DNA of 64,000 nt from an uncultured Candidatus Saccharibacteria bacterium. GTDB lineage: Bacteria; Patescibacteriota; Saccharimonadia; Saccharimonadales; Saccharimonadaceae. The translations under genes and the position numbers were made by a program. Below, piece by piece: positions 18,357-25,011 of this stretch. Each line of letters opens with the position of its first letter. Positions within the stretch are counted from its first letter, which is position 1. The stretch is from NCBI GenBank assembly GCA_964633435.1, contig CAZWHA010000003.1, positions 18,819 through 82,818 of the forward strand, read 5' to 3'. Under the pieces are notes generated by a model. That model searched no databases and was not told the origin of the DNA. It saw only the letters and a program-made list of their open reading frames with translations.

Positions 18357-18875
18357 ATGAATTATTACAGAGGTGAACAGACGAATTTAACTCAGGCTCA
18401 GCGGAATCTGCGCGATAAGTATAATGCCTCTCCGCCAGAGTTCAGTCCTAATGCCAGTCGACGTCAAGTAATGGAGCGCATGCTAGAGATAGCGGGACTG
18501 AGGATAGAGACTCCAGTCTGGTGGACTATTGCTGATAGGTTTGATACCGCAGCGTATATCGTGAACGACCTTATCGAGGAGCATATAGAGACGGATGTAG
18601 CTAGACGCGGTTCCTCTGCTGTTCCATTTGCAGATTTTATAATCAGCCGGCTAGAGGAAATGATAGCAGCTGATGATAAGATGCGCTTGGCTGAGAGAAG
18701 AGACTTCGCGGCAGCTGCGGCATTGCAGTCAACTACTGATGTAGCCGTTTCATCGGAAGGACAGGAAACTCCAGACGAATTGCGTCGTCGAGTACGGGCG
18801 ACACTAGGAGGCTCTAATGGGGGACAGCAAGGTCGGCGACGGTATTCTAATTCTCATCACAGGCGTCGTCGCTAG
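18357..18875 (+). CDS. hypothetical protein with an Arg-rich C-terminal tail
   Basis: 172 aa ORF with a TTGACA...TAAAAT promoter at about 18324..18352; no family recognised. Confidence 0.5.
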   Translation: MNYYRGEQTNLTQAQRNLRDKYNASPPEFSPNASRRQVMERMLEIAGLRIETPVWWTIADRFDTAAYIVNDLIEEHIETDVARRGSSAVPFADFIISRLEEMIAADDKMRLAERRDFAAAAALQSTTDVAVSSEGQETPDELRRRVRATLGGSNGGQQGRRRYSNSHHRRRR

Positions 18876-19296
18876 AATTCGTATCAGAACATTGTTTACA
18901 GATACCAAATAGCTCGAAATGATGTTTGGTCGGCGCTAATCTGGCTTTGATCGTCAGGTCGTGCAGTAACCGTTCGACACCATGATCATCGATTGGTGTC
19001 GTCTTGCCACAGCGCTCACAGGTGGCATGGTGATGGTGCGGTCGGAAATCCTCACCGAGTTCATAGTAAACTTTGAACCCACGCGGGACTTCGCGGACTA
19101 TGCCAGCCGCTTGGAGCGATGAAATTGATCTATAAATGCTCGTAAAATGGGCTGATCCGGTGTTCATAGCGATGATTTCTTGTATTAGTAACGGTCTATC
19201 TGTAGTCATCAGAATATGAAAAATCTCCTGACGATTGCCAGTGAGGCGTAAATTATGAGTAGCGAGCTTTTCCTTGAATAGGGTATTATTTTGCAT
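18847..19296 (-). CDS. Fur-family metalloregulator (Zur-like by context)
   Basis: Winged-helix N-terminus, HHHATCERCGK...CKQC metal sites. Divergent from a ZIP transporter. ATG 19296 preferred over the track TTG 19326. Confidence 0.8.
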   Translation of the reverse strand: MQNNTLFKEKLATHNLRLTGNRQEIFHILMTTDRPLLIQEIIAMNTGSAHFTSIYRSISSLQAAGIVREVPRGFKVYYELGEDFRPHHHHATCERCGKTTPIDDHGVERLLHDLTIKARLAPTKHHFELFGICKQCSDTNSSDDACDEN

Positions 19297-19308
19297 TATA
19301 TCATCCTT

Positions 19309-19327
19309 ATTGCAAATTATTTGCAAT
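19309..19327. promoter_or_regulatory. 19 bp perfect palindrome ATTGCAAAT-T-ATTTGCAAT, candidate Fur/Zur box
   Basis: Self-complementary except for the central base. Lies 13 nt upstream of the Fur-family start, in the divergent region shared with the ZIP gene. Confidence 0.55.
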
Positions 19328-19400
19328 AATTATAGCATACTGATTATAATAAAGACCATACCAGTAAAGTAACTGTAATTAAAAAGGATAGGTAGTAATT

Positions 19401-20171
19401 ATGTCAACAATGACGCAAGTAATTTTCTTTTCGCTCGTTGGAGGAGTGTTCTCGCTCATCGGCGGTATTATCTTGCTAGCACGCAAGCGTTGGGCACAGC
19501 ATCTCATAAAATATGCCACGCCATTTGCTGCTGGGGCGCTCCTCGCCGCCGCATTTATTGATCTGTTGAGCGAAGCGGCGCACGAGGGCAATGCCGAGGT
19601 GGCGCTCCAGGCGACTTTGACAGGTATTTTGGTGTTTTTCCTGCTCGAGCGGGCGATTCATTGGTTTCATCATCATAGCTATGGTCGTGAGCATCAACAT
19701 GAGGTCAAGAGTGCCAAAGTGCCACTCATCATTATCGGTGATGTGCTCCATAACTTTATTGATGGTATTGCTATCGCCGCCGCGTTTTTGGTGTCACCAG
19801 CAACGGGTGTTGTGGTGACGCTGGCCGTCGCCTTGCACGAGATACCACAGGAGATTGGTGATTTTGGCCTGTTGCTCAGTAAAGGCCTCAGTCGGCGCAA
19901 GGTGTTACTCGTCAACGTTGTCTCAGCGCTGGCGACAACTGTCGCTGCAGTGCTATTTTTCGCCCTGGGTCAGAATGTTGCGGTACCTCTCGACATCGTG
20001 TTGGGACTGACGGCCGGATTCTTTATCTATATTGCAGTCAGTGATATTATTCCGGAAATCCACGCTCACGAGCAGCAGCGATTCGTTGGTTGGCAATCAG
20101 TTCTGCTCATTGTTGGAGTGATCTTGGTCAGTGTTATTACTACTATGTTACACGGCTTTATTGAAGCGTAA
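19401..20171 (+). CDS. ZIP family divalent-metal (zinc) transporter
   Basis: HNFIDGIAIAAAF and ALHEIPQEIGDF signatures, a His-rich loop (HHHSYGREHQHE), multi-TM. Confidence 0.85.
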   Translation: MSTMTQVIFFSLVGGVFSLIGGIILLARKRWAQHLIKYATPFAAGALLAAAFIDLLSEAAHEGNAEVALQATLTGILVFFLLERAIHWFHHHSYGREHQHEVKSAKVPLIIIGDVLHNFIDGIAIAAAFLVSPATGVVVTLAVALHEIPQEIGDFGLLLSKGLSRRKVLLVNVVSALATTVAAVLFFALGQNVAVPLDIVLGLTAGFFIYIAVSDIIPEIHAHEQQRFVGWQSVLLIVGVILVSVITTMLHGFIEA

Positions 20172-20200
20172 TTGTTAAAACTAATCGTAAAGGAGATATC

Positions 20201-21136
20201 ATGCGAATAGCATTTTTAGGCAAGGGCGGCAGTGGCAAGACGACGGTGTCGTCGCTAGTAGCGAGACTCGCTCCGGAGAGCTTTGACGAAATATATGTCA
20301 TAGACTCTGATATCAATAAACATATGAAAAGTGCTCTCGGTCTGAGTGATCAACAGGTTCATCCTTTCACTCCAGTATTCAAAGCATTTGAATCAAAAGT
20401 ACGACAATATCACCCGGCACTCAATGGCTTAACGGCGCTGCCGCGGACGTTACCAGTCTGGGACACGAGCGTTATTACTAAAATAAGTTTCGACGAGAAA
20501 CCATTTAGTGGAAATCAGCCTATCAACAATACGCTAGTGTACGAGCTAGGTAGTTACAATGCCGATACGATGGGGTGGTCGTGCCATCATAATGCGCTAG
20601 GGAAATTGCAGTTTGTGTTGACGCATGCGGTCGATACGCCCGAACAATTGATCATTGCTGATTTAACGGCTGGTGCGGATGTATTTGGTGTGGGCATATT
20701 GGGATTGTTTGACAAAGTCTATGTTGTCGTTGAACCTACTATCAAGAGTACCGATATTTTCCTGCAGTTAAAAGAATTGGCAGGGCATGATGATGTCGAG
20801 CTAGAGCCGATTGCTAATAAAGTAATGGATGAAACCGATCTTGCCTTTATTGCTGATCGTATAGGCCAACTACCGGGGTATACTGTGAAACTATCTAATT
20901 TCGTGCGTCGGCTAGAGCGCGGCGAGACAGTTGCCACTAACGATATCGAGACAGAGAATTACCAGACCATAGAGCAGCTGCTCCATGACGTAGCAAACAT
21001 TCGTCGTAACAGCAGAGAGATGTATAAACATATCATAAAAAACCACCGCCGTGCCGCCAAAAATTGGCCCAAAGGGAAATTTGGGGACGTAGACCTGCTA
21101 ACCTTAATCAATCCAGATTATGAACCGATCGCATAA
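20201..21136 (+). CDS. CooC/MinD-family P-loop ATPase (putative metallochaperone-like)
   Basis: MRIAFLGKGGSGKTT Walker A, IYVIDSDIN, IIADLTAGADVFG...VYVVVEPT. Aligns by eye to the CooC layout, but C-H-H replaces the CxC metal motif. Confidence 0.7.
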   Translation: MRIAFLGKGGSGKTTVSSLVARLAPESFDEIYVIDSDINKHMKSALGLSDQQVHPFTPVFKAFESKVRQYHPALNGLTALPRTLPVWDTSVITKISFDEKPFSGNQPINNTLVYELGSYNADTMGWSCHHNALGKLQFVLTHAVDTPEQLIIADLTAGADVFGVGILGLFDKVYVVVEPTIKSTDIFLQLKELAGHDDVELEPIANKVMDETDLAFIADRIGQLPGYTVKLSNFVRRLERGETVATNDIETENYQTIEQLLHDVANIRRNSREMYKHIIKNHRRAAKNWPKGKFGDVDLLTLINPDYEPIA

Positions 21137-22160
21137 ATTACGATTCCTGTCGCGCGATGAGGTGATAGAGCTCGGTGGCATGGATATATCCATGGTGGTT
21201 GGACAGGTAGAGGCGGCACTACTGGCTTGGGACAGAGGTGATGTATTGCAGCCTGCGAAAACCACGTTAAAATACCTCGATCAGCACGAACGCTATGGCG
21301 GGCTTGTCAATGTACTGCCGGCGGCGCTGCGTGACGAACGAGGAGAGATCTATGCAGTAAAAGCGTTAGGTGCTATGCCGAGCAATGTAGAGCATGGGCT
21401 ACCGCGTGCCACAGGAGTCATTACTCTATTTGATGGTACTACCAAAACACCAGTGGCAGTGATGGATGGGCAGGTGATTAGCGCTATGCGGACTGGTGCA
21501 GTCAGTGCACTGGCGGCGCGAGTATTGTGCTCGACTGATACAAAACATCTTGGTTTGATTGGGGCGGGGGTAAATATGCGGACACAGCTACTGGGTCTAC
21601 TATATACATTATCAGAGCTGGAAACAGTTACGGTATACAGCCGTGGCGATAGTAAGCATGATTTCGTGGCTACTATGAGTAAACGTTTTCCGTCAGTCAA
21701 TTTTTGTGCAGCCAACTCTTCTCGCGAAGCAGTGGAGCATGCCGATGTTGTCGTGACCTGCGTGGCAAACGCCGATCAACCTGTCGTGGCGGCCGATGAT
21801 TTGAATCGACCAGGTTTAACAGTGTTTAATATCGGCTGTCTCGAAAATGAACCGAAATTGCTCGCTACTATGGATCTAGTGGTGGCCGATTATTGGGAAC
21901 ACTCTAAGCATCGTGGCGTACAAACCCATGCGGTTGCCTATCAGCAAGGTTATATACGTGACGAGGACGTAGTAGACTTGAAAGATATTGTGGGGGGGGG
22001 TAAGGTCAGAGGGAGGACGAGCCGGGAACAACGGATCTTCTTTGCTCCGACGGGGCTTGGCGTTGAAGATGTAGCGGTAGCACGCGAAATACTGAGTCGA
22101 GCCGAATCGCAGAACGTCGGCCAACTCTTGGAACTATGGAGTGACGAGCCATGGATTTAG
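21120..22160 (+). CDS. ornithine cyclodeaminase / mu-crystallin family NAD(P)-dependent enzyme
   Basis: ISAMRTGAVSALAAR followed by the Rossmann segment LGLIGAGVNMRTQL; 346 aa; overlaps the upstream gene by 17 nt. Confidence 0.7.
   Translation: MNRSHKLRFLSRDEVIELGGMDISMVVGQVEAALLAWDRGDVLQPAKTTLKYLDQHERYGGLVNVLPAALRDERGEIYAVKALGAMPSNVEHGLPRATGVITLFDGTTKTPVAVMDGQVISAMRTGAVSALAARVLCSTDTKHLGLIGAGVNMRTQLLGLLYTLSELETVTVYSRGDSKHDFVATMSKRFPSVNFCAANSSREAVEHADVVVTCVANADQPVVAADDLNRPGLTVFNIGCLENEPKLLATMDLVVADYWEHSKHRGVQTHAVAYQQGYIRDEDVVDLKDIVGGGKVRGRTSREQRIFFAPTGLGVEDVAVAREILSRAESQNVGQLLELWSDEPWI
21992..22000 (+). repeat. poly-G tract, G9, in frame (gtg ggg ggg ggt = V-G-G-G)
   Basis: Counted directly: t21991, g21992-g22000, t22001. 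Confidence 0.95.
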
Positions 22161-23488
22161 CTGCTATTAAACGTTGGACATTGGCTCTGGAGCAATTATC
22201 GCCACACGTTCGTCGTGAACTACGTAGCACTATTTCGCCCATAGAGATCGGTGGCGAGTCTGCCACTTTGCTGGCCGCACCGCTATTTCTATCGTCTAAA
22301 ACTTACGAAAAAGTGGTGGCAGCAGCCGAGACCTTTGTCGATGCTACGGTAGCAATAGAAACTAACTCGCGATTTAAAGCCGGTAACGTCGTGTATGACA
22401 GACTATATAATTCTCTGAGCGCCAATGGTAAAACACTAATTGATCGCTCCAAACCTGTTACGAGCGAGACGGCAAAACGGCGTTTTCGCCGGCTGGATGG
22501 ATTTTTACTGAGCAATCAAGCACCAACATTTATTGAGATGAATCAATCTGCACCACTGGCTATCAGCTTTTATCAACGAGCAAAGCAACTTGTGACCGAC
22601 ATTGCCGATAGAGCGGATATAGCAATTACTGAGAGTGGTGATTTATACTCTGATTTGGCCAAGTGGTTTATCTCGGAACTCCGAGCTATTGGTCACAATC
22701 AGGATTCTGCTACAATTGCCGTCAGTATGGAGCGGGGCTATCCGGCGAAGTTTGTCGATCTGCCGGTAGCATGCGACGGCATCGCAGCTGCCGCTAAAAA
22801 ACAAGGCCTAGAACTAACATTTATATTAGCCGAACCAACCGAATTTACTTGGGACGGTATGCGCGGCTACGTAAAGGGCGTTAGTTTTGATTTGTTATGG
22901 CGAAATACCGTATATCTGCAAAATTATCCTGAAACTCTTGCTGAATATGAAGCTATTCGTTATGGCGGTATGCCGATGATTAATGATCTACACTCGTGGT
23001 TCTTTCGGTCAAAAGAATTTTTTGCGATCCTATGGGATGATGCTATGCAATCAGAGCTAGCCAAGTTCGGTATCGATGTAGCAAAAGTCCGCCATCTCGT
23101 CCCGCGAACAATCAGCCTTAATCAGTTAGACAAGGATGAGAAGGACAGGTCTAGTTGGATATTAAAGCGCTGTGACGACGGTTTTGGTAAAGGAATTGTC
23201 TTTGGGTCAGAACTGACCAGAGCAGAGTGGGTCGAGTATATAACCGGCCAACATGGAACCGATTGGATTGCCCAAGAGATTGTCAGGCCGCTCGCTACTG
23301 AGCTTCCGATCATCTTGTCTGATGGCAGTGTTCAGTCGGTTACGTGCCATTGTGACATAGATCCATTTGTTGTAAATGGTAGTGTGTCGGGAATGTTGGT
23401 ACGAGCGTTGCCCGTAAATACTGGAACCAATAGAAAAATGAACATTGTTGAGGGCGCAGCGATTGGCTGCGGTATGTTACAATATTAA
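22151..23488 (+). CDS. ATP-grasp-type ligase (glutathionylspermidine synthase / eukaryotic GSH synthetase-like fold)
   Basis: FRRLDGFLLSNQAPTFIEMNQSAPLAISF resembles the R-x-D...E-x-N-(A)DTP pre-ATP-grasp motif. ILKRCDDGFGKGIVFG and WIAQEIVRP resemble nucleotide-binding strands. Overlaps the upstream gene by 10 nt. Confidence 0.55.
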   Translation: MDLAAIKRWTLALEQLSPHVRRELRSTISPIEIGGESATLLAAPLFLSSKTYEKVVAAAETFVDATVAIETNSRFKAGNVVYDRLYNSLSANGKTLIDRSKPVTSETAKRRFRRLDGFLLSNQAPTFIEMNQSAPLAISFYQRAKQLVTDIADRADIAITESGDLYSDLAKWFISELRAIGHNQDSATIAVSMERGYPAKFVDLPVACDGIAAAAKKQGLELTFILAEPTEFTWDGMRGYVKGVSFDLLWRNTVYLQNYPETLAEYEAIRYGGMPMINDLHSWFFRSKEFFAILWDDAMQSELAKFGIDVAKVRHLVPRTISLNQLDKDEKDRSSWILKRCDDGFGKGIVFGSELTRAEWVEYITGQHGTDWIAQEIVRPLATELPIILSDGSVQSVTCHCDIDPFVVNGSVSGMLVRALPVNTGTNRKMNIVEGAAIGCGMLQY

Positions 23489-23490
23489 CC

Positions 23491-25011
23491 ATGGCAACCC
23501 TACAAGATTTCCGCGATGAGCGACTGAAAAAACTCGAGAAACTACGTGAGCTCGGCATAAATCCTTATCCGGCGAAAGCCGAACGGACCGTCGCTACGGC
23601 TCGGGTGACGACAGATTTCGATACTCTCAGTGGGACAGAGCAGACAGTGGTTGGTCGGATCGCGAGCATTCGCAAGTTTGGCAAAATTGCCTTTATTGTT
23701 GTGCGTGACCAGAGCGGCGAACTGCAGCTTTTCCTACGATCTGGCGAAGTAGAACCGACAACGGCTGAATTGTCGCTGATTGGTATAGAAGACTTGAATC
23801 TGCTGGACACCGGTGACTTTGTTGAGGCAACTGGCGAAGTAATCAAAACGCAAACGGGCGAAATCAGTCTCGGTGTGAAAAAGTTACGATTACTGACCAA
23901 AGCGCTGCGGCCGATGCCGAGTCGCCAAGATGGCTTTACGAACAAAGAGGAACGGTTCCGACGGCGTTACGTTGATATGAACGTTAACCCAGAGGTTCGC
24001 GAACGCTTTGAGCGACGCAGTAAATTCTGGCATGCCACCCGCGAGTTTCTGGAAAACGAAGGTTTTATCGAGGTCAACAATACCGTGCTCGAAGCTACGG
24101 CTGGTGGAGCAGACGCGAATCCGTTTGTCACGCATATGGATGCGCTAGACCAAGATTTCTACCTGCGCATCAGTCACGAATTGCCACTGAAACGCCTGCT
24201 GGTGGCTGGCTTTGAGAAGGTTTTTGATATTGGCGCACGTTTTCGTAACGAAAATTACAGCGACGAACACTTGCCAGAGCATAATGCTATGGAGTGGTAT
24301 TGGGCCTATGCGGATTGGCAAGACGGCATGGCGTTAACCGAGCGAATGATTCGCTTTGTCTGCGATCAGACCTGGGGCACGCGGCAATTCACTCTGGCCG
24401 ATGGTCAAGAAGTTAATTTTGGCGAAGATAACGGACATTTTCCAAAAATTAATTTTGTTGAAGTACTCGCAAATGAATTCAATATTGATGTATTTGAATC
24501 ATCGATAGAGGAAATTCAGGCCGCATTGAGACAGCATGGATTAGAGGTAGAAAAAGTTGACAATCGGATTCGTAGCCTCGATAAATTGTGGAAGAAGTAT
24601 CGAAAAACGATTGCTGGACCGGCATTTTTGGTAGGAATTCCGATATTTATGCAGCCACTCGCCAAAAAGCAAGCCGATGATCCGCGTATGAGCGAGCAAT
24701 TCAATCTAGTATTTGGTGGTAGTGAAATGTGTAAAGCTTTTTCAGAGCTCAACGATCCACTCGATCAGCTGGATCGGTTCCGTGAACAACAAGCAATGCG
24801 CGATGCTGGCGACGACGAGGCGCAAATGCTCGATATTGATTTCGTTGAGGCACTCGAATATGGTATGCCGCCAGCCTGTGGCCTGGGCTACAGTGAACGC
24901 GTGTTCTGGAGTCTCGAAGGCATTACGGCTCGCGAGGGTGTACCATTCCCGCAACTTCGCCGCGAAATTGATCAAACAACACGTGATATATACAGTGATT
25001 TAAGTTTATAG
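23491..25011 (+). CDS. lysS: lysyl-tRNA synthetase (class II)
   Basis: N-terminal OB domain (VVGRIASIRKFGKIAFIVVRDQSG), class II motifs (FRNE, GGSEMCKAFSELNDP, GLGYSERV). Confidence 0.95.
   Translation: MATLQDFRDERLKKLEKLRELGINPYPAKAERTVATARVTTDFDTLSGTEQTVVGRIASIRKFGKIAFIVVRDQSGELQLFLRSGEVEPTTAELSLIGIEDLNLLDTGDFVEATGEVIKTQTGEISLGVKKLRLLTKALRPMPSRQDGFTNKEERFRRRYVDMNVNPEVRERFERRSKFWHATREFLENEGFIEVNNTVLEATAGGADANPFVTHMDALDQDFYLRISHELPLKRLLVAGFEKVFDIGARFRNENYSDEHLPEHNAMEWYWAYADWQDGMALTERMIRFVCDQTWGTRQFTLADGQEVNFGEDNGHFPKINFVEVLANEFNIDVFESSIEEIQAALRQHGLEVEKVDNRIRSLDKLWKKYRKTIAGPAFLVGIPIFMQPLAKKQADDPRMSEQFNLVFGGSEMCKAFSELNDPLDQLDRFREQQAMRDAGDDEAQMLDIDFVEALEYGMPPACGLGYSERVFWSLEGITAREGVPFPQLRREIDQTTRDIYSDLSL

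Follow-up and report, generated by a model that had tools for sequence, protein, structure and literature searches.

To our knowledge, the COG0523 GTPases, represented in Zur regulons by ZigA, ZagA, YeiR and Zng1, are the only nucleotide-dependent zinc chaperones that have been studied so far. Among the metal-binding metabolites under Zur control, staphylopine and pseudopaline depend on CntL, which resembles nicotianamine synthase, on CntM, a member of the octopine dehydrogenase family, and on the EamA-type exporter CntI, while the aes cluster of Amycolatopsis japonicum for [S,S]-ethylenediamine-disuccinate ([S,S]-EDDS) is reportedly also controlled by Zur and is said to employ an SbnB-like enzyme of the ornithine cyclodeaminase (OCD) family in chelator synthesis. 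The obligately epibiotic Saccharibacteria possess very few genes for biosynthesis, so that a conserved and regulated two-enzyme pathway would be unusual in these organisms. Here we describe a candidate for such a pathway on a 64,000-nucleotide stretch of contig CAZWHA010000003.1 (assembly GCA_964633435.1; hereafter the window) from an uncultured Candidatus Saccharibacteria bacterium, in which a Fur-family regulator gene faces an apparent operon for a ZIP-family transporter, a CooC-like ATPase, an OCD-family enzyme and a predicted ATP-grasp ligase (ligase X). The locus consists of two separable modules, a widespread one formed by the Fur-family gene and an ATPase with a C-x-H motif (CxH ATPase), and an independent cassette of the OCD and ligase genes. 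Taken as a whole, the locus may represent a metal-starvation unit, most likely for zinc, that makes a metal-ligand product, a reading whose chances we put somewhat below even.

Results

Gene order and co-conservation

The genome to which the window belongs (G000; 864 kb, 99.7% complete) carries the following features at this locus, with positions counted from the first letter of the window:

18847..19296, minus strand: Fur-family regulator, 149 aa from the ATG at 19296 (open reading frame (ORF) 18847..19326 if a TTG start is used)
19309..19327, no strand: candidate operator, a perfect palindrome (9-1-9 repeat, 7-1-7 Fur-family core geometry)
19321..19350, plus strand: predicted sigma-70-type promoter of the plus-strand operon (consensus match)
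19401..20171, plus strand: ZIP-family (ZupT-like) transporter (Pfam PF02535)
20201..21136, plus strand: CooC-like P-loop ATPase (PDB sequence search, profile, AlphaFold2 (AF2) model and Foldseek)
21120..22160, plus strand: OCD/mu-crystallin-family enzyme (Pfam PF02423)
22151..23488, plus strand: predicted ATP-grasp ligase X, 445 aa (fold match by AF2 and Foldseek)
23491..25011, plus strand: lysS, class II lysyl-tRNA synthetase (NF001756, 472 bits, cut-off 468)

The ORFs, gaps and overlaps listed in an earlier reading of the letters without database searches (the sequence-only reading) were reproduced exactly in the ORF list: the ZIP and ATPase genes are separated by 29 nt, the ATPase and OCD genes overlap by 17 nt and the OCD and ligase genes by 10 nt, and lysS begins 2 nt after the ligase stop codon. 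A scan of the locus found no terminator-like sites between the operon genes, and the base composition of the region is the same as that of the rest of the window.

The order ATPase-OCD-X was kept in 16 of 16 genome loci and in every Saccharibacteria-type metagenome locus (about 40 loci in all), including those of close relatives of the window, and all named relatives recovered were Candidatus Saccharibacteria metagenome-assembled genomes. In a more distant lineage (L030), the Fur, ATPase, OCD and X genes lie on one strand, and their products share 41% (ATPase), 46% (OCD) and 32% (X) identity with those of the window. Co-conservation of the three enzyme genes in relatives, which the sequence-only reading had named as a test of its proposal, was thus observed in a fixed order. 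In a phylum sample of 401 genomes, a close homologue of X was found in G000 alone and in none of the 11 genomes of its own family, while the ATPase was present in 17. The Fur-family gene directly adjoins the ATPase gene in nine of the 11 full-length loci of this sample, and two of these nine are genomes of G000's own family that lack both OCD and X. Distant X homologues from metagenomes (27-30% identity) have an OCD gene (43-52% identity) immediately upstream and no ATPase gene in four of four cases, and another distant X (L004) stands alone. In L054 and L056, the gene for a 298-aa EamA-family transporter overlaps the ligase gene by 8 nt. The apparent operon of the sequence-only reading therefore stands with respect to its tight packing and gene order, but not as one indivisible system.

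Frameshifts were present in a few copies of the module. In several copies from metagenome-assembled genomes or metagenomes, one or two genes were split into two tblastn pieces (the ATPase in L018, X in L051, the ATPase and OCD in L055, and OCD and X in L058), through either faulty assembly or a decay of the module in certain lineages. The spacer between the OCD and ligase genes of L056 (2565-2700) is taken up by two short tandem arrays, of GTGAAAA-type units and then of CACGCAT-type units.

The CxH ATPase and its genomic neighbours

The ATPase belongs to the MinD/SIMIBI class, scores just under the Pfam CbiA cut-off and carries a deviant Walker A motif, GKGGSGKT, that is invariant in its family. 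Its earlier designation as CooC-like held up, since CooC1 was the best match both in sequence (PDB 3kje; expectation value (E) 1.5e-11 alone and 1.2e-23 with a family profile) and in fold, where a Foldseek search with the AF2 model (predicted local distance difference test (pLDDT) 89.8) returned CooC1 first, followed by MinD, ATPase-type HypB and NifH. In the profile alignment, the 'G-v-k-C-y-H' of the ATPase falls exactly on the 'G-s-q-C-y-C' of CooC1. The corresponding residues C128-H129-H130 are encoded at 20582-20590, and all of 18 diverse family members, with identities as low as 29%, have C128 and H130. At the C terminus, a helical extension of about 70 aa contains the conserved residues H282 and W289. 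A role in the maturation of CO dehydrogenase (CODH) was rejected, as the 99.7%-complete G000 contains no match to PF03063 and hence no CODH.

A word-indexed search returned 1,737 ATPase homologues. CxH ATPases occur in Patescibacteria, Actinomycetota, Chloroflexota and Acidobacteriota, where their usual partner is a Fur/Zur gene or a PF20704 protein. In Doudnabacteria the ATPase gene is divergent from a Fur gene, in Dictyobacter it follows a ZnuA-ZnuC-ZnuB-ZnuB series, and in Streptomyces a gene for a Cys-less L32 paralogue is followed by a CobW/COG0523 gene and then by the ATPase gene. In many genomes the ATPase is followed by the 130-aa PF20704 protein. In the two genomes from the family of G000 itself, this place is taken by a Cys-containing protein of 270 aa without assigned family, with a ZIP gene coming next in one case.

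The latter protein (L063 643-1470 and L064 591-1391, both on the minus strand; 266-275 aa) has no Pfam match and shows a conserved C-E-C-G-A-x-H-L motif and a C-terminal P-D-C; the ZIP gene is the one in L064. The gene found most often immediately after the CxH ATPase is that of the PF20704 protein, which Pfam lists as 'NucS shadow ORF'; it was seen in Streptomyces, in Acidobacteria and in several Patescibacteria, low-GC genomes included (L027 7005-7397, L028 7082-7474, L029 7071-7490, L079 6031-6426, L080 6103-6489 and L060 2551-2901). This synteny suggests that it is a real protein and a functional partner of the ATPase rather than a shadow ORF. Moreover, a 'predicted permease' of the ArsP_1 family adjoins the Fur/ATPase pair in a Saccharibacterium (L063 3024-3896, plus strand), and an ArsP_1 permease together with a DUF1980 gene lies beside the L32-CobW-ATPase cluster of Streptomyces (L027 2459-4479, minus strand). 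This recurrent neighbour of the ATPase is possibly relevant to metal handling.

The regulator, its candidate operator and the ZIP transporter

The regulator matches PF01475 with 51 bits (cut-off 23) and contains two CxxC pairs and an HHHH stretch, so that the Fur-family domain is combined with a structural Cys4 site, as in Zur proteins. It is the only Fur-family protein of G000 and is encoded by a single copy. The ATG at 19296 fits the homologues as a start codon, and the TTG at 19326 would represent a possible extension. On the NCBIfam equivalog models for Fur, Zur and PerR, the regulator scored below the cut-off in all three cases.

The palindromic box that the sequence-only reading had noted with the Fur-family gene was confirmed and lies in the divergent promoter. 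It is a 19-bp perfect 9-1-9 repeat (ATTGCAAATTATTTGCAAT, 19309-19327) located 13 nt upstream of the regulator ATG, for which about 0.07 matches per window would be expected by chance with three mismatches allowed. It is the sole perfect copy in the 864-kb genome, and a search for further operator sites in G000 gave just chance-level near matches, mostly within ORFs. Its right half, TTGCAA, coincides with the -35 hexamer of the best promoter-like site, whose -10 hexamer TATAAT ends at 19350. This predicted operon promoter has 10 of 12 consensus matches and an 18-nt spacer. The core of the palindrome, TGCAA-N5-TTGCA, is kept across lineages in Fur/ATPase promoter regions, including those of L032 and L058, and the operator sequences of further loci are given below:

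L002: TTGCAACTAATTTGCAA
L003-type: TTGCAACATTTTTGCGA
L023-type: TTGCAACAAATTTGCAG
L030: TGCAAACTACTTGCA
L033: TGCAACGTTTTTGCA
L063: TGCAAAAATGTTGCA
L064: TGCAACTTTGTTGCA
L060: TGCAAGTAGTTTGCA
L062: TGCAAGTTATTTGCG
L065: TGCAACTATGTTGCA

The spacer sequence around the core is not conserved between lineages. By chance, ten fixed bases would turn up roughly once in a million positions, so that finding the core repeatedly in short orthologous spacers greatly exceeds chance expectation. The core is also present in genomes without OCD or ligase genes, and in the L023-type clade, in which the operon has no adjacent Fur gene and Fur-family proteins are encoded elsewhere, the boxes are kept. The pattern TGCAA-N5-TTGCA could therefore be used for predicting the regulon across Patescibacteria. 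A riboswitch or leader RNA ahead of the operon was dropped from consideration, as no Rfam match, either at gathering score or at E<1, was found in the window, L002, L003 or L023.

The transporter, by family an importer of divalent metals, matches PF02535 with 132 bits, has a His-rich loop and is encoded by a single copy in G000. Against the ZupT equivalog it reached 80 bits (cut-off 252). ZIP is a variable neighbour of the modules: its gene is the first of the operon in the window and in L032, and in L002, L064 and L070 it lies one or two genes away from the ATPase gene in another arrangement.

The OCD-family enzyme and ligase X

The assignment of the third operon gene to the OCD/mu-crystallin superfamily, already made in the sequence-only reading, was borne out by a match to PF02423 over nearly the full profile (171 bits, cut-off 24; positions 10-313 of 314) and by the Rossmann motif GLIGAGVNMRTQ read from its sequence. 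The enzyme is closest to SbnB and to archaeal alanine dehydrogenase and is NAD(P)-dependent by family, with SbnB as the best PDB match (4m54, 4e-40) in an end-to-end alignment. Many OCD homologues with 45-50% identity lie on large contigs. The analogy to SbnB did not extend to family membership, since the score of 196 bits on TIGR03944 is below the cut-off of 327. The SbnA/SbnB pathway itself was rejected for this locus because G000 encodes no pyridoxal phosphate (PLP) fold-type II enzyme.

Ligase X had no Pfam or NCBIfam match at E 0.01. Its AF2 model, built from a 22-sequence alignment, reached a pLDDT of 89.9 and a predicted template modelling score (pTM) of 0.90, and the top Foldseek matches were human, plant and yeast glutathione synthetases (E about 1e-15 to 1e-18, TM 0.56-0.70), followed by 3n6x (CP_ATPgrasp_2), Cp1B, glutathionylspermidine synthetase (GspS) and YgiC/YjfC. 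Moreover, the family profile of X matched Cp1B (9cjn) with E 1e-6, which argues for homology of X with the glutathione-synthetase-like group. In the fungal E-64 pathway, Cp1B acts as the amide ligase (PMC12568646). An exhaustive hidden Markov model search yielded 24 representative clusters at E<1e-30 and 418 at E<1e-10, and remote members of this superfamily reach CP_ATPgrasp_2 marginally, whereas X itself does not. As modelled, X is a glutathione-synthetase-like, circularly permuted ATP-grasp ligase of the carboxylate-amine type and belongs to an uncharacterised family. The earlier ATP-grasp assignment is thus upheld at the level of the fold and of a weak profile match, but no curated profile matches the protein.

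In a comparison by eye with human glutathione synthetase, X appears to contain the E-x-N magnesium ligands, two ATP-binding lysines and, besides a Gly-rich loop, an Arg/Tyr substrate pair. The resemblance suggests, by analogy, an acceptor with several carboxylates. No conserved Cys/His cluster was seen across the ligase X family. A plasmid collection searched with ligase X gave a single weak and uninformative match. Actinomycetota are the usual hosts of Saccharibacteria, and 401 Actinomycetota genomes contained just remote superfamily matches (E 1e-16 to 1e-23) and no close X, which argues against a recent transfer from the host.

Other features of the locus

The lysS gene is present in a single copy in G000 and neighbours the module only in the clade of the window (L032, 46-nt gap), while in L002, L003 and L033 a convergent pth gene follows the module in its place. 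It is not part of the conserved module, its adjacency being local to the clade, and it is probably transcribed by read-through from the operon.

A 172-aa ORF of no family with an Arg/His-rich tail lies between greA and the Fur gene (18357-18875, plus strand) and overlaps the 3' end of the latter by 29 nt. In the close relative L032, greA abuts the Fur gene, leaving no room for this ORF, and it may perhaps be no gene.

A conserved non-coding stretch found in L002 and L023 proved to be a separate element beside dprA, resembling a small RNA (sRNA) gene, rather than an operon leader. The element (250-300 nt) adjoins dprA in many Saccharibacteria loci (L002 about 2350-2715, L023 4717-4970, L003 about 2029-2225), and a weak copy is present outside the window at G000:C2:4199-4324. 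It has a sigma-70-like promoter in L002, and a GC-rich hairpin (GGCGCCAGGT..ACCTGGCGC) with a T6 run behind it forms its end. Rfam contains no matching family, and the element looks like an unannotated sRNA gene.

Discussion

Proposed function and its alternatives

Under metal sufficiency, a dimer of the Fur-family regulator would sit on the 19-bp palindrome and block the -35 hexamer, and under metal shortage the repressor would leave the DNA so that the operon is transcribed. ZIP would then bring metal into the cell, and an ATPase dimer might hold the metal between its two C-x-H motifs and hand it on upon ATP hydrolysis, by analogy with CooC and HypB, acting as a zinc-handling chaperone in place of the COG0523 GTPases of other Zur regulons. 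The OCD-family enzyme and the ligase could build a small amino-acid-derived amide or an N-carboxyalkyl (opine-like) polycarboxylate, and this product might serve as a metal ligand, either as a secreted zincophore or as an intracellular zinc buffer. A zincophore or zinc-buffer role is plausible, if unproven. That OCD and X make a small molecule is indicated by the fold of X, which is that of small-molecule amide ligases, and by the EamA gene in L054 and L056, which in addition favours a secreted product. For the metallophore pathway on which the sequence-only reading had speculated, the evidence points to a small-molecule product, but no dedicated exporter or chelate importer was found in the operon and no SbnA in G000.

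Several observations weigh against a zinc-starvation unit with a metal-ligand product. The operon contains no dedicated exporter or chelate importer, which favours an intracellular ligand or a different role, and the sole EamA gene of G000 is 28 kb away and unrelated to the EamA of L056. Neither SbnA nor any other PLP fold-type II enzyme (PF00291) is encoded in G000, leaving the known SbnB chemistry without a substrate source. Elsewhere the OCD-ligase pair occurs without a nearby metal gene, and the downstream partner of the ATPase varies (PF20704 protein, 270-aa Cys-containing protein, or OCD and ligase), so that OCD and ligase need not relate to the function of the ATPase. The regulator scored 38 bits on the Zur equivalog (cut-off 167) and similarly low on the Fur and PerR models, and by eye it appears to lack the regulatory-site Cys typical of Zur. 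Both ZIP and ZnuA-type transporters also carry other metals. Finally, the essential single-copy lysS lies downstream without a visible promoter of its own, which disfavours tight repression of the whole transcript.

The first alternative is a zinc-sparing bypass, in which OCD and ligase would replace the step of a zinc enzyme in a metal-independent manner, comparable to FolE2 or the Cys-less ribosomal proteins, and no chelator would be made. Backup enzymes of this kind are common in Zur regulons (PMC2770081; PMC6103462), the missing exporter would be expected, and the ATPase neighbours vary as clients or backups would. We nevertheless consider a bypass rather unlikely, because no zinc-dependent step can be named that an OCD-family enzyme and an ATP-grasp ligase would replace, because in L054 and L056 an EamA exporter gene is coupled to this pair, and because the pair is rare, with a close ligase homologue in just one of the 401 phylum genomes.

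With regard to the metal, zinc is the most likely reading from gene context, given the Cys/His motif of the ATPase and the ZIP, ZnuABC and Cys-less L32 plus CobW neighbours of its family. These ATPase contexts strengthen the link to metal homeostasis drawn in the sequence-only reading, but they do not prove zinc. Since G000 encodes neither ZnuA nor any COG0523 protein, ZIP and the ATPase would be the sole candidates for these roles, which likewise favours zinc. A regulator that senses iron, manganese or peroxide, with an operon serving that metal, for example through a siderophore-like product and a ZIP importing Fe or Mn, is a second alternative of about the same small weight as the bypass. 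ZIP/ZupT transporters are of broad specificity, the sole Fur-family protein of G000 scores slightly best on the Fur models, and a TerC gene lies nearby in L003 and L033. In addition, SbnB is part of a siderophore pathway (PMC3179956). However, the TerC and Fur genes are convergent, with no promoter in common, the Cys/His ligand set suits zinc, and members of the ATPase family are found behind ZnuABC and in the company of CobW and a Cys-less L32 paralogue.

Still less probable appears a model in which the ATPase serves the maturation of its downstream neighbours, either by loading metal into OCD or the ligase or as part of one complex of all three proteins. The tight translational coupling through the 17-nt and 10-nt overlaps and the invariant ATPase-OCD-ligase order in about 40 loci would fit such a model, as would the fact that the relatives CooC, HypB and NifH each serve specific partner enzymes. 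However, OCD and ligase are found without the ATPase and the ATPase without OCD and ligase, neither the OCD nor the ligase family is known to need a transition metal, and the ligase family shows no conserved Cys/His cluster. Ordinary amino-acid metabolism, with OCD as an ornithine cyclodeaminase, alanine dehydrogenase or imino-acid reductase and X as a peptide ligase without a functional link to the metal regulon, is similarly improbable, for although OCD-family members perform such housekeeping reactions and Saccharibacteria rely on imported amino acids, the pair is absent from 11 of 11 same-family genomes and from nearly all of the phylum sample, which argues against housekeeping, and it always lies behind a Fur-box promoter.

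If the locus is indeed a zinc-starvation unit with a metal-ligand product, the pathway may show how Saccharibacteria compete for zinc on the host or in the mouth and gut. A wider proposal, which we advance as possible but doubtful, is that the CxH ATPases (about 320 aa) form a second, unrecognised class of zinc-linked nucleotide-dependent metallochaperones that in some Saccharibacteria has been joined to a new OCD-ligase route to a zinc-binding metabolite. The C128/H130 site offers a clear biochemical target in this family.

Comparison with known systems

No description of a Zur-linked CooC-type ATPase, of a Saccharibacteria Zur or of a metallophore cluster combining OCD and ATP-grasp enzymes was found in the searchable literature, and the available part of a 2024 review of bacterial metallostasis makes no mention of CooC. 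Like the Zur regulons that contain COG0523 proteins, the locus combines a Fur-family repressor and its palindromic box with a zinc importer and with a P-loop NTPase that has a Cys/His metal motif. In contrast to the COG0523 proteins, which are G3E GTPases with a CxCC motif, the NTPase of the window is an ATPase of the MinD/CooC class, in which a C-x-H motif accompanies a deviant Walker A. CooC itself is its best match in sequence and fold and has the same Walker A and a metal motif at the same position. However, the ATPase of the window has C-x-H in place of the metal-bridging C-x-C of CooC, adds a helical C-terminal region of about 70 aa with a conserved His and Trp, and belongs to a family that neighbours Fur, ZIP and Znu genes, not CODH genes.

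For the biosynthetic pair, the SbnA/SbnB pathway to L-2,3-diaminopropionate offers an SbnB-like OCD enzyme, control by metal starvation and chelator synthesis as common traits. G000 differs from both this pathway and the aes cluster in lacking a PLP enzyme of the SbnA/AesA type, and there is neither a nonribosomal-peptide-synthetase-independent siderophore (NIS) synthetase nor a decarboxylase, the partner of the OCD enzyme being the predicted circularly permuted ATP-grasp ligase. Glutathione synthetase, GspS, CP_ATPgrasp_2 proteins and Cp1B have the same fold over the whole length of ligase X and, as judged by eye, the E-x-N, K and Gly-rich-loop motifs in the same order, but their identity to X is 10-16%, and X differs from them in its fixed OCD-family partner. 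As proposed for the cassette, the opine-type metallophores are made from amino acids by two enzymes, with one NAD(P)H-dependent step and under Zur control, and the version of the cassette in L054 and L056 likewise has an EamA protein attached. In contrast to these systems, the operon contains no chelate importer, and OCD and ligase are expected, from the families of CntL and CntM, not to be homologous to these enzymes. In comparison with all of these systems, we rate the locus as a Zur-type starvation regulon that contains an uncharacterised chaperone-like ATPase family together with an uncharacterised biosynthetic pair. If this is true, a CooC-type family with a Cys/His site would stand beside the COG0523 GTPases as a second class of nucleotide-dependent zinc chaperones.

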